IMG/VR virus record: IMGVR_UViG_3300020045_006357
Location: 1-39,388 of that record
Length of the DNA: 39,388 nucleotides
Strand: one strand, 5' to 3'
DNA from: a virus
Taxonomy: Duplodnaviria > Caudoviricetes
Shown: one piece after another, positions 2,362-24,470 of the stretch
Layout of the letters: every line of letters starts with the position of its first letter
How positions within the stretch are numbered: position 1 is the first letter of the stretch
Notes under the pieces: generated by a model
The model's input: only the letters and a program-made list of their open reading frames with translations
Told to the model about the DNA's origin: nothing
The model's database searches: none
Translations under genes and position numbers: made by a program

Positions 2362-3830
2362 TGGCCCTCGTTGACCAGTGGGGAAACCCTCAGAGCTACA
2401 GCGGCAGCCGCCGCCCGGCACGTTCCGCGAACCTTGGCGGTGGCGATCGTCCCAGCGAATCATGGAACATCCGCGACGTTTCCAAGGCGGTGCCGCGCAT
2501 GGATCGGCGCATGATGGCTTCCGCATCGAAGACGCTCTACCTGAATTCCCAAATCCTGATTGGTGCGATCGACCAGAAGGCAATGTATTCGGTCGGCAAC
2601 GCATGGCTCCCGGTCTATCGAGGTCGTGACTCCAAATTCGGCGAGGCCGCAAAGGATTTCTTGGAGGGCGAGTGGTATGATATTTGTAACATCCAAGGCG
2701 GGCAGAACGACTTCGTTTCAGACCTTTACGTCGATTCCGTGGCAATGGACCGGGACGGGGAAATTTTCGAGTATTCCACCGCCACGCCGAACGGTTATCC
2801 ACAGATTCAGGTGATCCCGAGTCACCGGATCGACGCCGGGGGATTGCCTGAAGGCCAACTGCGCACGGGTCGATATTCCGGCAGCCAGTTCGTCCACGAG
2901 GACGGAATCATCTATTGGAAAGAAGGCGGGGCCGCGGTCGCCTACTCGTTTTGCGATGCTGAGGGACGCCACGAGAAATTCATCGATGCTGCGTTCATCA
3001 AGCACGTTTTCGACAAGGCGTGGCCTGAGCAGAAACGCGGTCTCCCGTTGTTCTATCACTCGCTTAACGGGTTGCGCGACATCCTTCAAAGCGAGGAATG
3101 GGAGCGGTTCAACCTGCTTTCGATGTCGCGGCTCAACTACACCGTCCACAATGAGACGGGCGGGCCAGATACTGAAGAACCTGGCTACGTCCCGCCAGTG
3201 GATTGCGACAAAATGGCTGTCGAATATCTCCAAGGCGGGCAGATCATGTATGCCAAGGCGGGCGCGGGCGAGAAGATCGAGCAGCACGCCAACTTCCGAC
3301 CCGGCAACCCATGGCACGAGTTTTACGACATGCAGGCGCGCGCCGCGCTCGTCGGGATCAACTGGCCCATGAGTCTCTGGAAGCCATCCGGCCAAGGCAC
3401 CGCCGAGCGCAGCCAGATCGGACTAGCCGTCCGCTCCGTGGATGATCGGCAGACGCTTTTGTCGAAAATCGCAAAGTGGCGGGTTACGAAAGCTGTCGCA
3501 TGGGGGATGGATAACGGAAGAATTCCGAAATCCGCCGACTGGTGGAACTGGGGGTTCACGAAGCCGCCCAAACTCACGATTGACGACGGCAGAAGCTCCA
3601 AGGAGAAGCTCGAAAAGTTCCGCGCCGGCATCCTCAACCAGACCGATCTAATCGGCGAAGAGGGCATGTCATTCGCTGACCAGCTCGCAATCCGCGGCGA
3701 GGAAATCGCGGCCCGCGCCATGAACCGCAAAGCGATGGAAGAGAAATACAAAATCGAAATCGACCCGCGCGAATATCTCATGATGACGCCGAACGAACAG
3801 CAACCTCAGAAAAAGAAAACCGACCCATGA
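2361..3830 (+). CDS. Portal protein, lambda family
   Basis: 489 aa; DGEIF, IQVIPSHRI, EQKRGLP motifs typical of lambda gpB-like portals; synteny. Confidence 0.9.
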   Translation: MALVDQWGNPQSYSGSRRPARSANLGGGDRPSESWNIRDVSKAVPRMDRRMMASASKTLYLNSQILIGAIDQKAMYSVGNAWLPVYRGRDSKFGEAAKDFLEGEWYDICNIQGGQNDFVSDLYVDSVAMDRDGEIFEYSTATPNGYPQIQVIPSHRIDAGGLPEGQLRTGRYSGSQFVHEDGIIYWKEGGAAVAYSFCDAEGRHEKFIDAAFIKHVFDKAWPEQKRGLPLFYHSLNGLRDILQSEEWERFNLLSMSRLNYTVHNETGGPDTEEPGYVPPVDCDKMAVEYLQGGQIMYAKAGAGEKIEQHANFRPGNPWHEFYDMQARAALVGINWPMSLWKPSGQGTAERSQIGLAVRSVDDRQTLLSKIAKWRVTKAVAWGMDNGRIPKSADWWNWGFTKPPKLTIDDGRSSKEKLEKFRAGILNQTDLIGEEGMSFADQLAIRGEEIAARAMNRKAMEEKYKIEIDPREYLMMTPNEQQPQKKKTDP

Positions 3831-19211: not shown

Positions 19212-19711
19212 GTCTATCAAATCACATCGTCTCAATCGCCCGCTCTGAAATCGGAGTCACCGAAGTCAACGGCAGCAACTGCGGGCCGAGGGTCAACCAG
19301 TATAAAGCCGCGACATGGCTAGATGCCTCGCAAGCATGGCCGTGGTGTGCAGCCTTTTGCTGCTGGGTTATCCGTGAGGCGATGACGGCTGCAGGCATCA
19401 AGGAGACGGCAGGATTCAAGCGGCCCCACACTGCCGGCGCGCTCGACCTTGAAAATTGGTCCCGCGAGCAAGACGCCAGCACATGGACAAAAACCCCGCC
19501 GGATGGGGATATCGAGCCGGGCGACGTGATCACTTTCCGATTCAAAAATGGTGGCCACTGCGGGTTCGCGATCAGCGCGCCGGATGCGGGCGGATACGTG
19601 GATACCATCGAAGGAAACACCGACAGCGCGGGCAGTCGTGAGGGTGGTGGCGTATTTAAAAAGCGACGGCATATCCGGGATATCCACGGCAGGATCAGAT
19701 TTCGAGTTTGA
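19208..19711 (+). CDS. Endolysin, CHAP-family amidase/peptidase
   Basis: PWCAAF, GHCGF, TIEGNT motifs. Confidence 0.88.
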   Translation: MSLSNHIVSIARSEIGVTEVNGSNCGPRVNQYKAATWLDASQAWPWCAAFCCWVIREAMTAAGIKETAGFKRPHTAGALDLENWSREQDASTWTKTPPDGDIEPGDVITFRFKNGGHCGFAISAPDAGGYVDTIEGNTDSAGSREGGGVFKKRRHIRDIHGRIRFRV

Positions 19712-19736
19712 CGCCGCGCCCGGTTCGCGCTATCAC
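19708..19736 (+). promoter_or_regulatory. Sigma70-like promoter for ncRNA/tRNA unit
   Basis: TTGACG-17 nt-TATCAC; spacer carries GCG-N9-CGC in the same register as the late motif. Confidence 0.7.
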
Positions 19737-19741
19737 TCCCG

Positions 19742-19801
19742 CGCGGCTTGAGGGGCGCCAAGTAGCTCTTGGTAAGGTTAGCGCCCGTCCCGATAGCCGC
19801 G
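19742..19801 (+). ncRNA. Putative structured small RNA upstream of tRNA-Gly
   Basis: Nested stems CGCGGCT/AGCCGCG, GGGCGC/GCGCCC, CCAAG/CTTGG starting at the predicted +1. Confidence 0.45.
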
Positions 19802-19810
19802 ATATTTTCA

Positions 19811-19885
19811 GCGCGTGTAACTCAACGGTAGAGTGTCAGTTTTCCAAACTGGATGTTCTCGGTTCGAATCCGAGCATGCGCTCCA
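19811..19885 (+). tRNA. tRNA-Gly(TCC) with encoded CCA
   Basis: Full cloverleaf: GCGCGTG/CATGCGC, ACTC/GAGT, TCAGT-TTTCCAA-ACTGG, CTCGG-TTCGAAT-CCGAG, then T-CCA. Confidence 0.95.
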
Positions 19886-19930
19886 TTTTCGCCTGATGGG
19901 AGACCCCGTTGGGAGCTAGCCGAAAGACAG

Positions 19931-19964
19931 GCCCGCAGGACTTTGTAAACCCTGCGGGCTTTTT
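19931..19964 (+). terminator. Terminator of tRNA unit
   Basis: GCCCGCAGG...CCTGCGGGC followed by TTTTT. Confidence 0.85.
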
Positions 19965-19993
19965 CGCGCCTCCGATAAATTAGAAATGATTCC

Positions 19994-20022
19994 TTGCGGA
20001 AACCCATGCGCGCGGGTATTTC
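19994..20022 (+). promoter_or_regulatory. Early promoter with AACCCATGCGC operator in spacer
   Basis: TTGCGG-AAACCCATGCGCGCGGG(17)-TATTTC; spacer shared with the minus promoter at 24276-24304. Confidence 0.6.
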
Positions 20023-20051
20023 TTTTCCCGTCAACCAACCGCCAAACCAAA

Positions 20052-21241: not shown

Positions 21242-22291
21242 TCACCGGAAAAACCGCTCTCCCGCCGCCTTAGTCACCGCCCGCCGATAGTGCCGGAACA
21301 GCGTAGAGCTGCCCGCAGCATGCCCCATCGCTTGCTTTGCAGCGTCCTCCCCGAACGCCGCCAGATAGTTGCTGCCGAACGTGTGCCGGCAAACATCGAC
21401 CATTTCAGCAATCCCAGAATCCCGCCGGATCCGCTGCCATTTTTTCCGCCAGCCGCTCGGGCAAACCGGGCCGGATTTCGGATGGTCGCCGATCAGTCGT
21501 CGCAACCTGGACGTGATCGGGATGTGCCTGTCACTTTTTGTTTTGGAGACGTGCCGAGGAACGTAAATCTCCGACTCGCCAACCGCGGACCAGTCGAGCC
21601 GGCCAATCTCGCCAGACTCCGAATCGGGACGAATCCCGGCAAAAATCAGCAGCGCGATAACCCGCTTCTCGTCAGCGCACTCGCAGACGCGCAAAACCCG
21701 CCCGGCTTGAGATGGCGACAGGATGTCGATATGCGACGATTTCCGGTGTCGCTCCCGGTAGCCGATTATTGCCGAGAGATAGCGCGCGCGGTTGTCGATG
21801 GTGCTGCGTTTGATTTTGGATTGCTCGGTCAAGGCGCGCTCCATTTCGGCGCGGTCAACCGACGCGCAGGGGAGCGCCATAAACCACGCAGGAACCCACC
21901 GCGGCAGTCTCCCCATGTCGTCGGCGTATCGAGGTGCCCACTCCTGCTCCATGGCCAGCATGGCGCGATCGTAGCGCTCCCGAAACGTCTCGCGATCCGA
22001 CTCGCTGGGCAGTCTCGCCATCGCCATCCGCGCAGCCTCCGCAACTGTTATCCCGCTGCCCGCAAGGATCCGCTCGGCTTCTTTTGCCTGGATCGCGAGG
22101 GTCGCCGATATCATCGACCCGCGAACGCCTGACGAGTGCGAGGCGCGAATGGATGCAGCGAATTTGAGCGCCTTGCTGCGATCTGGGAAATACCTCCGAA
22201 CTCGCTCGCCGGCGGGACTCATGGACGCAGGGACTGAGACCATCCATCCGCGGGAAGTTTCGACGGGGAGGAATTTAGGAGGCGCTGCCAC
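21242..22291 (-). CDS. int: Tyrosine recombinase/phage integrase
   Basis: AGIR (R), SKT (K), DVCRHTF (HxxR with H to D), MGH, HYR (Y); close to attP. Confidence 0.92.
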   Translation of the reverse strand: MAAPPKFLPVETSRGWMVSVPASMSPAGERVRRYFPDRSKALKFAASIRASHSSGVRGSMISATLAIQAKEAERILAGSGITVAEAARMAMARLPSESDRETFRERYDRAMLAMEQEWAPRYADDMGRLPRWVPAWFMALPCASVDRAEMERALTEQSKIKRSTIDNRARYLSAIIGYRERHRKSSHIDILSPSQAGRVLRVCECADEKRVIALLIFAGIRPDSESGEIGRLDWSAVGESEIYVPRHVSKTKSDRHIPITSRLRRLIGDHPKSGPVCPSGWRKKWQRIRRDSGIAEMVDVCRHTFGSNYLAAFGEDAAKQAMGHAAGSSTLFRHYRRAVTKAAGERFFR

Positions 22292-22324
22292 GGGCGGGGA
22301 TAAGGGATGCGGAAGACTTCCTGA

Positions 22325-22618
22325 TCAGCTGTTCTCGGAAGATTTGATTTCCTCCACGATGATCCGGTATTTCGGCACGCCATTCACTTTCACGTCGAGC
22401 GCGTAGCCGGGTTGCACGAGCTTCACCACAGAGTTCAGCGCGTCGCTCGTCACGTCCTGCTTGCCTTCCCTCCAGGTTTTCCCGTCCTTGCAGAGGCGTC
22501 CCACGAATATCCTCTCGGACAGCGCGGCGAGGCCGACAACCAACCGAGAACAAGTAGTCGTTGGCAACCCGCCATCTGGGGCGAGTTCGGGCGTTGAGTC
22601 TGATGGGGCAGTTTTCAT
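22325..22618 (-). CDS. Cassette 1 ORF, hypothetical (RIFVGR...KQDVTSD)
   Basis: ATG 22618 inside attC1 loop, overlapping TGA of upstream ORF (ATGA); part of ORF 22325..22759. Confidence 0.65.
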   Translation of the reverse strand: MKTAPSDSTPELAPDGGLPTTTCSRLVVGLAALSERIFVGRLCKDGKTWREGKQDVTSDALNSVVKLVQPGYALDVKVNGVPKYRIIVEEIKSSENS

Positions 22619-22660
22619 GGTGTCGGAGATTTGGTGTCGGCGGTTGCCAAGACAGGAGCG
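22332..22660 (+). mobile_element. Integron-type gene cassette 1 (329 bp)
   Basis: Begins at G^TTCTCGG (22331-22338), the exact reverse complement of CCGAGAAC (22544-22551, R'' of its attC). Confidence 0.8.
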
Positions 22661-22666
22661 TTCGTC
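22545..22666 (+). repeat. attC site 1 (122 bp)
   Basis: R'' CGAGAAC, 5-nt spacer, L'' GTC[G]TTGG, CAACC[C]GCC...GGC GGTTG, L' CCAAGAC, 6-nt spacer, R' GTTCGTC. Confidence 0.82.
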
Positions 22667-22950
22667 CGGCGGAATGCCCGTGGGTGCAGTATCTGTTCGC
22701 GGGGATGACGGTCGGCGTGATCTAGCCCCCAATACATCCGTGCATGAAGGCGGGTCCACGACTGCCCCTCGTCAATCCGGGTGATGGTGCATGATCTCCA
22801 TTGGCCTTCTCCACGGTAGCCATCCCACAGGTATTCCAGCGTTTCGCCCACGGTCGGCTTGATCGTTTTGTCAGCCTTGGCCGCAAGTTCCTGCCACGGA
22901 CGAACAAGGGAGCGCATACGACCCGGAGAAGCTTTTCTGTTACTTTTCAT
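22615..22950 (-). CDS. Cassette 2 ORF, hypothetical
   Basis: ATG 22950 inside attC2 loop; reads through the right arm of attC1 and stops in the attC1 loop; part of ORF 22615..23109. Confidence 0.6.
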   Translation of the reverse strand: MKSNRKASPGRMRSLVRPWQELAAKADKTIKPTVGETLEYLWDGYRGEGQWRSCTITRIDEGQSWTRLHARMYWGLDHADRHPREQILHPRAFRRTNAPVLATADTKSPTP

Positions 22951-22988
22951 TGGCTTGATCTTTCGCTCCGGGCGCATGGCCCCCAGCG
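22661..22988 (+). mobile_element. Integron-type gene cassette 2 (328 bp)
   Basis: Begins at G^TTCGTCCG (22660-22668), the exact reverse complement of CGGACGAAC (22897-22905). Confidence 0.78.
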
Positions 22989-22994
22989 CTCGGT
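22899..22994 (+). repeat. attC site 2 (96 bp; R' reads GCT)
   Basis: R'' GACGAAC, spacer AAGGG, L'' AGC[G]CATA, CG[A]CCCGGAG...CTCCGGGCG, L' CATGGCC, spacer CCCAGC, G^CTCGGT; L-box mismatches become G.T on the bottom strand. Confidence 0.72.
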
Positions 22995-23040
22995 CAGCGG
23001 AATCACTCTCCATAATACTAGCTGGAAAGCAATAATATTT

Positions 23041-23235
23041 GTCGCCACTATCGCCACATCGCAGAACGATGAGGAAGGAAACATGAGCAATCATGCATTG
23101 GAAAATCAACAGATTGGGGAGCCGGCTGAGGGATTTGAACCCTCGACCTACTGATTACAAATCAGAGGGCAAATTCATACGGCGCTAGGCGAATCGGCGA
23201 CGGGTTGAGAAATCGCCTCCAAATCGCCACATCGC
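23041..23235. other. attP region: tRNA-Thr(TGT) 3'-half core with arm repeats and IHF site
   Basis: Core 23118-23165; ATCGCCACATCGC at 23050-23062 and 23223-23235; AATCAACAGATTG (23104-23116) matches WATCAANNNNTTR. Confidence 0.85.
23118..23165 (-). other. att core = 3' half of tRNA-Thr(TGT)
   Basis: CTGA-TTTGTAA-TCAG TAGGTC GAGGG-TTCAAAT-CCCTC AGCCGGCTCC; D-arm and 5' acceptor strand absent. Confidence 0.88.
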
Positions 23236-24269: not shown

Positions 24270-24275
24270 GCGCAA

Positions 24276-24304
24276 AAACTACCCCTGCGCATGGGTTATG
24301 ACAA
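24276..24304 (-). promoter_or_regulatory. Leaderless promoter with AACCCATGCGC operator
   Basis: TTGTCA-TAACCCATGCGCAGGGG(17)-TAGTTT-TTGCGC-ATG. Confidence 0.72.
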
Positions 24305-24332
24305 GCGGGAAGTTCTAATTTATTTGGACGCG

Positions 24333-24376
24333 AAAAAACCCGCACCTCTTGGATTTCAGGTCCAGTCGATGCGGGC
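24333..24376 (-). terminator. Terminator directly after tRNA-like RNA
   Basis: CCCGCATC...TGGA/TCCA...GGTGCGGG followed by TTTTTT on minus strand. Confidence 0.8.
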
Positions 24377-24436
24377 TTACGCGAACCGGACTCGAACCGG
24401 CGACCAAAACGGTTCTGCCAACTGAACTACCGCGCG
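24377..24436 (-). ncRNA. tRNA-like RNA lacking the anticodon arm (~60 nt)
   Basis: CGCGCGG TA GTTC-AGTTGGCA-GAAC CGTTTT GGTC GCCGG-TTCGAGT-CCGGT TCGCGTA A. Confidence 0.8.
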
Positions 24437-24441
24437 CAGGA

Positions 24442-24470
24442 AGGATAGCGCGACGGGGCGCAGGCGTCAA
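24442..24470 (-). promoter_or_regulatory. Promoter of tRNA-like RNA
   Basis: TTGACG-17 nt-TATCCT; +1 falls at the RNA 5' end; similar to the tRNA-Gly unit promoter. Confidence 0.75.

Follow-up and report, generated by a model that had tools for sequence, protein, structure and literature searches.

Between the integrase gene and the attachment site of a temperate phage lie what appear to be two phage-adapted integron-type cassettes. Their genes stand on the attC sites' bottom strand, would take their start and stop signals from these sites, and would be shuffled by the integron integrase (IntI) of a Verrucomicrobiota host. Judging by the sequence comparisons reported below, we put the probability of this reading at about three in four. 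In the proposed mechanism, each attC would give its own gene the likely start and first 15–25 codons and, read in the AAC frame, would give the gene in front its tail and stop. Host IntI would cut the folded bottom strand at AAC in R', a cassette and its own attC would move as one unit, and cassettes would enter at a GTT within a phage operon. Since a start and an in-frame stop would be fixed in each attC, any cassette order would give an operon coupled by termination–reinitiation. The reversed polarity would leave inserted host-type cassettes, including anti-phage genes, antisense to the phage transcript; anti-phage genes are described in chromosomal integrons (bioRxiv 10.1101/2024.07.02.601686).

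A cassette array separates int from attP

The window, that is, the whole stretch of 39,388 nt analysed, is the entire virus record of a 39.4-kb temperate phage (IMG/VR IMGVR_UViG_3300020045_006357). Its left half encodes terminase, portal, protease, capsid and tape measure proteins; the right half carries replication genes. The features of the region are:

21242..22291, minus strand: phage tyrosine integrase gene (int); PHROG_1, E 1.7e-16; GTG start aligned to the ATG of relatives
22292..22331, no strand: receiving side of the array; 40 bp absent from six aligned int relatives; crossover G at 22331
22332..22660, plus (top) strand: cassette 1; body 22332-22544 plus attC1 through the G of R'; 8-nt R''/R' complement
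22545..22666, plus (top) strand: attC1; R'' 22545-22551, L'' 22557-22564 (extra G), loop 22565-22646, L' 22647-22653, R' 22660-22666
22661..22988, plus (top) strand: cassette 2; body 22661-22898 plus attC2; its copy in viral locus L005 has other neighbours
22899..22994, plus (top) strand: attC2; R'' 22899-22905, L'' 22911-22918, loop 22919-22974, L' 22975-22981, R' 22988-22994
22325..22618, minus strand: ORF1; 97 aa, DUF7446 (Pfam PF24233, 39.1 bits against a cut-off of 24.1)
22615..22950, minus strand: ORF2; 111 aa; likely start in the attC2 loop, last 15 residues and stop from attC1
22989..23033, no strand: leader; 45 bp between attC2 and an attP arm site, absent from five aligned relatives
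23042..23230, minus strand: attP; 3' half of tRNA-Thr(UGU) (∼23118-23165) plus arm-type repeats at 23042, 23051, 23213 and 23224

The int gene starts with GTG at the place where six aligned relatives have ATG. It had no match in NCBIfam and no BLASTP similarity to a host IntI, and a TIGR02249 search found no IntI in this genome. The resident int thus reads as a phage integrase, not as an IntI. This tyrosine integrase lies beside an attP consisting of half a tRNA and arm-type repeats, the make-up of a tRNA-targeting integrase module. The array parts int from attP, whose core and arm repeats seem intact. The tRNA part of attP has at most 90% identity to tRNA-Thr genes of Akkermansiaceae-family genomes; in the prophage state, the array would come after the host's tRNA-Thr gene. 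An Rfam search returned a tRNA-Gly elsewhere, a sub-threshold tmRNA match on attP and nothing else; an exact DNA search of genome contigs with the attP core gave no match.

An alignment query found viral relatives of int in 42 loci, where a single-sequence query had found none. We examined 38 relatives, comprising 29 of these viral loci (13 at ≤36% identity were dropped) and nine genome loci, six of which are labelled Verrucomicrobia or Akkermansiaceae and three as other phyla (MAG bins). A tRNA-like core lies ∼90–165 bp before int in 24 of the 38, and none of these 24 has an attC in between. The int ATG of five aligned relatives lies ∼8 nt past the arm site; in the window, ∼740 bp are inserted between the arm site and int, of which cassettes account for 657 bp and flanks for 85 bp. 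These flanks have no counterpart in the aligned relatives and are possibly the receiving site and the remnant of a third cassette, of which the leader (22989-23033) may be the end. Because int is not an IntI and its relatives are without cassettes, the link between int and the array is one of position only.

No consensus promoter was found adjoining the array; the nearest on this strand lies at 24470. The phage also has two related promoter-like units, inverted to each other, at 19708-20030 (plus) and 24274-24470 (minus). Both consist of a TTGACG...TATC(A/C)T promoter, a tRNA part and then a common ∼80-nt block before a gene start; the tRNA part is a tRNA-Gly(UCC) gene (19811-19885) in one unit and a tRNA-like remnant in the other.

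Two attC sites, one of them damaged

Both sites read AAC, an A-rich 5-nt spacer, an 8-nt L'' with the extra base at position 4, a loop, a 7-nt L', a 6-nt spacer ending in C, and R'. A scan of the whole window for this geometry gave attC1 and attC2 as its two hits, with scores of 15 and 14, while five Markov shuffles of the window gave zero to four hits each, the best scoring 12.5. A relaxed scan of the window yielded no convincing further attC, and none left of 22331 either. In both cassettes, R'' and the G|TT box at the cassette's opening (22331 and 22660) are complementary at 8 of 8 nt. The minimum-free-energy folds of the bottom strands pair the R and L boxes, with z-scores against shuffles of 0.50 for attC1 and −1.69 for attC2; the fold of attC1 is thus no stabler than that of shuffled sequence, and the fold of attC2 only modestly so, which speaks against the reading as attC.

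Whereas attC1 matches the full geometry, including an intact GTT in R', the R' of attC2 is damaged: it reads GCT and has two bases fewer than the intact copy in L005. Because this cleavage triplet (AAC on the bottom strand) is lost, cassette 2 is probably locked in place. The two sites, one of them damaged, stand without an IntI, as in a cluster of attC sites lacking an integrase (CALIN); a complete integron would have an adjacent intI gene, and none is present. Exact DNA searches gave no match for the attC1 arm in viral contigs or for the attC2 arm and int-side flank in metagenome contigs. The idea that the empty target site forms a hairpin was discarded, as 198 of 300 shuffles fold equally well.

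Both genes lie on the attC bottom strand

An earlier note on this DNA had placed both ORFs on the attC bottom strand, and site markers, codon changes and the DUF7446 match of ORF1 bear it out. The top strand of an attC can be told by an extra base on the R''–L'' arm, an A-rich R''–L'' spacer and a G after the bottom-strand AAC (PMC2727003). All three make the plus strand the top strand here. The canonical polarity, with the gene on the top strand and attC at its 3' end, is therefore not the one found.

Compared with its homologue in L005, ORF2 has 26 synonymous and four non-synonymous codon changes; 28 of 32 changes fall at third positions, and all five other frames are interrupted by stops. 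ORF1 and its homologue in viral locus L001 differ by 21 synonymous and 23 non-synonymous codons. The top-strand ORFs at 22412-22597, 22461-22784, 22561-22725 and 22801-23154 had no Pfam match. ORF2 has six homologues but had no Pfam, PHROG or NCBIfam match; its Atlas matches, all below 0.9, are leads only.

To survey attC sites, we searched viral contigs with two DNA patterns, which gave 120 and 115 loci, and applied both patterns to 201 genomes from the family to which the hosts likely belong, from which 43 loci were fetched. Our own geometry scan scored every well-formed attC in the fetched loci, giving starts on either strand the same chance. G is the extra base in 44 of 46 host sites and 45 of 50 viral sites. 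In host cassettes, the main ORF lies on the top strand in 37 cases and on the bottom strand in none, with three ties (n = 40); in viral cassettes, it lies on the bottom strand in 37 cases and on the top strand in two, with ten ties (n = 49). The difference is strong (Fisher p 1e-19), the sites having been dereplicated but not being independent, as one host genome gave many. The suggestion of a cassette class specific to phages agrees with these counts of bottom-strand genes, 37/49 viral against 0/40 host.

Pfam matches point the same way: they occur in 12 of 24 bottom-strand ORFs of surveyed cassettes (two short ones of 26 were left out) and in none of 25 top-strand ORFs. The 12 Pfam-positive cargo genes, from viral loci L008 to L200, comprise ten DNA methyltransferases, one Mom and one match under the cut-off. 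The assignment of L145, L151, L157 and L179 as host-type top-strand cassettes proved wrong once these loci were inspected. In a separate viral contig (L150:1498-1917), a host-type cassette, with a top-strand gene and a host-like attC, lies antisense to the neighbouring phage genes.

Likely start and stop signals within attC

ORF1 starts with ATGAAAA in the attC1 loop (22618), so that attC1 encodes its residues 1–25, and terminates as Asn-Ser-stop just beyond the crossover at 22331, the receiving side (22292-22331) providing the Ser and the stop in frame with the crossover. ORF2 likewise begins ATGAAAA, at 22950 in the attC2 loop, and has no stop within its own cassette. It passes the crossover as an in-frame Asn codon and ends in the attC1 loop, which thus contains both the TGA of ORF2 (22617-22615) and the ATG of ORF1, overlapping by 4 nt. 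The sequence accordingly contains what the earlier note described: ORF2 crossing the junction to a TGA on the ORF1 ATG, and ORF1 ending past its crossover. The array was also said to form an operon co-oriented with int. The orientation is correct; int is not overlapped, the ORF1 stop lying 33 nt before the int GTG.

A survey of frame conservation had been proposed as a check. Among 43 viral cassettes with a bottom-strand ORF across AAC, 42 have the AAC in frame: 35 in that frame only and seven in that frame among others, leaving one solely out of frame. Stops follow the same frame. Within 36 distinct viral attC sites, the first AAC-frame stop lies ≤14 nt from the outgoing ATG in 29, compared with nine and eight for the other two frames, and the median stop–ATG distance is 4 nt in the AAC frame versus 160 and 41.5 nt. 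When sites from the search pattern that contains ATG are omitted, the counts are 14 of 19 versus seven and five. By contrast, host sites have a stop near the start in two, two and three of seven for the three frames. Bottom-strand ORFs start in just seven of 50 host sites, and their stops have no frame preference. These data agree with the view of attC sites as protein-coding elements that carry start and stop signals. They also support the predicted consequence, that stacking would couple cassettes independently of the neighbour.

At 26 junctions, the two genes overlap by 1 or 4 nt in six and lie within 14 nt in 23. The ATGA overlap alone shows little, because such overlaps are common in this phage (14 of 43 hand-picked plus-strand genes); the case for coupling rests on the frame-specific stop statistics. 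In L005, the tail of ORF2 is a different one and its overlap with the following start is 11 nt; the preceding gene in turn stops 11 nt into the start of ORF2. L005:2604-5975, part of a 76-kb phage, has at least seven such cassettes in a row, some carrying two or three genes, and several of its junction attC sites have poorly pairing arms. A short element also recurs right after R'' in several unrelated viral cassettes; translated, it gives LPSSSGISS from the bottom strand and, from the top strand, REEMPEDDGREQ (L129:1560-2111, L130:1498-1700 and 2663-3119, L145:2199-3099, L184:1490-1500).

Starts in attC loops, as claimed, are likely for both ORFs here. Such starts are widespread without being the rule: of 49 viral cassettes, 34 have their start inside attC but just 17 have it well inside the loop, the others starting in the arms or after R'' (the latter in L145, L151 and L157). 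An alternative is that the reversed cassettes are real but truly start in the arms or shortly past R'', the overlap being a by-product of a compact genome. A TTG at 22543, immediately outside attC1, is in frame with ORF1, and ORF2 has further in-frame ATGs at 22917, 22977 and 23013. The DUF7446 core begins only at ORF1 residue 28, and ordinary homologues start there: of 100 further homologues, most are plain genes of ∼70 aa starting at the core, most have no attC, and four have a long N-terminal extension. Gene callers choose an internal Met as the start of several ORF1 homologues and, for those of ORF2, a later Met within the L'' arm. The frequency of ATGA overlaps in this phage would fit this alternative too.

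Start context argues otherwise. With a matrix built on 47 hand-picked genes of this phage, the ORF1 loop ATG, the sole in-frame ATG ahead of the core, ranks at the 99.3 percentile of 1303 ATGs. The ORF2 loop ATG ranks at the 89.6 percentile, against 9.8, 24.3 and 65.9 for the ATGs at 22917, 22977 and 23013, respectively, and the L005 equivalent of 22977 runs into a stop after four codons. A by-product of compactness would also not be expected to favour stops near starts in the AAC frame specifically, or to be absent from host sites. We thus consider this alternative unlikely. The loop ATGs are the likely starts of ORF1 and ORF2, and no more than likely because of the TTG just outside attC1.

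The 11 closest homologues of ORF1 all have the Asn, followed by differing tails. One homologue (L001:2968-3246) has both 8-nt boxes and an attC-type N-terminus but no detectable attC hairpin; we read it as a domesticated cassette.

Exchange of cassettes and attC sites

Cassette 2 recurs in L005 with 87% identity in the body and 98% in attC but with other neighbours, the change falling exactly at R'. Only two of 90 positions differ in attC2, compared with 32 of 238 in the body (p 0.002), and this low divergence fits either a dual constraint or recent exchange. Among 28 pairs of homologous bodies, some of which share contigs, 18 have the same attC and neighbour, eight have the same attC with another neighbour, and two borderline pairs (74%) differ in attC. 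The eight pairs with a constant attC and a different neighbour indicate that attC moves together with the gene for which it probably supplies the start.

The body of ORF1 presents a different case. Contigs in four sequencing runs, which belong to one study and come from no more than two samples, match 22331-22555 with two differences in 225 nt (99%). In them, another attC-type arm precedes the ORF1 body, the match setting in precisely at the crossover G (22331); past R'', it breaks off within the spacer and gives way to a different attC. The four runs contained no joints and no cover of ORF2. Sites like attC1 occur on other cargo in four loci (P0005, L129, L130 and L154), and 56 attC pairs at ≥85% identity stand on unrelated bodies. 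An ORF1 body with a different attC of its own is unexplained by bottom-strand recombination alone. Some attC top strands recombine at low rates (PMC5027507), and exchange at R'' could occur by top-strand recombination or through micro-homology.

These data suggest a conversion of native phage genes into cassettes and an occasional exchange of attC start modules at R'', the ORF1 body being the one direct case. A more far-reaching idea, which we offer tentatively and consider doubtful, is a phage cassette factory run on the host integrase: ordinary phage genes would be captured in reverse orientation between G|TT boxes and fitted with attC start modules that are interchangeable. Captured phage genes would lose their own start and stop, and attC modules would be exchanged at R'' and moved at R'. 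If so, protein ends would arise by combination, polarity would shield the phage from anti-phage cassettes of the host, and there would be a direct handle on the origin of cassettes.

The same observations could be taken to mean that we have assigned the polarity wrongly: the other strand would recombine, with the crossover at the R'' box, and the genes would lie the usual way round and borrow a start from the upstream attC. Inverted 8-nt boxes flank the bodies and their matching fits both polarities; the switch of attC in the spacer beside R'' on a 99%-identical ORF1 body, the 56 attC pairs on unrelated bodies and the low-rate top-strand recombination of some attC sites (PMC5027507) would all be expected. 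However, genes are on the top strand in host arrays whose sites share this geometry and the extra G. Moreover, eight of the 28 body pairs keep the R''-side attC and change the other neighbour, only the two borderline pairs differing in attC, and attC2 stays with ORF2 in L005 at 98%. The scan found no attC beyond 22331, where this explanation needs one. We judge it very improbable.

Returning to reversed cassettes moved at R', the recombining enzyme is likely the integron integrase of a Verrucomicrobiota host. Of five genomes from the likely host family, one encodes a full IntI. We only infer this enzyme, because no IntI was found in this genome or in any of five array-bearing viral records (one of them complete). 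An IntI-like integrase gene in genome G004 (L297:178-1167; 198 bits, under the cut-off) is followed by a phage replication-type gene and may be a prophage-borne relative of IntI. There is little chance that the shuffler is instead a phage recombinase, the resident integrase or short-arm homologous exchange, with the likeness to attC inherited: the lack of IntI in these viral genomes, the position of the array beside the resident integrase and attP, a RecE-like exonuclease gene in the phage, and micro-homology in the common GAACAAG motif, which could give exchange at both R' and R'', are outweighed by neighbour changes exactly on the G|TT crossover, a box geometry as in the integron attC sites of hosts, the presence of IntI in likely hosts, cassette-free attP sites in relatives of the resident integrase, and the recombination of phage attC sites by IntI1 (PMC9892861).

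Comparison with known systems

The reversed layout is real and is best read as a phage variety of integron cassette. In integron biology, bottom-strand recombination is held to serve to bring genes on the top strand under control of Pc (PMC5027507); the sites described here have that geometry but carry phage genes reversed, with translation signals and a fixed frame inside the recombination site. If host IntI moves them, phages turn an adaptation system of the host to their own use and reshuffle accessory genes, of which many encode DNA methyltransferases, into coupled operons. The origin of cassettes has been called largely unknown (PMC5371416). A gene family with both plain and cassette-borne members, and with the same body on different attC sites, makes that question testable. 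In phage genomes, attC finders and gene callers mis-assign cassette genes and their starts. Our full-text literature search, which did not extend to most subscription papers, found no description of reversed, attC-started phage cassettes.

The closest counterparts are phage CALINs, clusters of at least two attC sites without IntI in which bacterial IntI1 recombines the bottom strand of the sites (Qi, Rajabal, Ghaly, Tetu, Gillings 2023, PMC9892861). As here, attC sites cluster without IntI and DNA methyltransferases are frequent cargo. The text of that paper describes arrays that are typical or have divergent attC directions and does not mention systematic bottom-strand genes, starts within attC or a frame rule; the comparison is with the text, and its figures and annotation files may show reversed cases.

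Classical cassettes of class 1 and Vibrio integrons (PMC2727003, PMC5027507) share the R''–L''–loop–L'–R' order, the extra base, the G|TT crossover and the complementarity of R'' to the cassette's own core. Unlike these, the cassettes described here have a bottom-strand gene with attC at its 5' end, both arms code for protein, and the crossover is an Asn codon. On the bottom strand, the extra base is C rather than G, a change that costs 2.7-fold (PMC2727003), and no intI, attI or Pc was identified. Chromosomal cassettes of the Akkermansiaceae family resemble ours in box geometry, the GAACAAG start and the top-strand extra G; by contrast, their genes lie on the top strand (37/40), often reading into attC at the 3' end.

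ORF-11 of attI1 and short attC ORFs (PMC8876359) offer a parallel for the frame. There too, a frame crosses the crossover and uses a neighbour's stop, which is thought to aid re-initiation. In that system, the product is a short top-strand helper peptide, whereas here it is a bottom-strand cargo protein with both ends encoded by attC. Finally, the GTT at the first crossover (22331) agrees with GWT, the consensus for insertion by IntI at attG sites (bioRxiv 10.1101/2022.09.11.507474). Such insertions are described in host chromosomes, with top-strand genes that need a nearby promoter, while here 85 bp extra surround the array. By analogy, an attG-type insertion would be a route by which a phage array can start.
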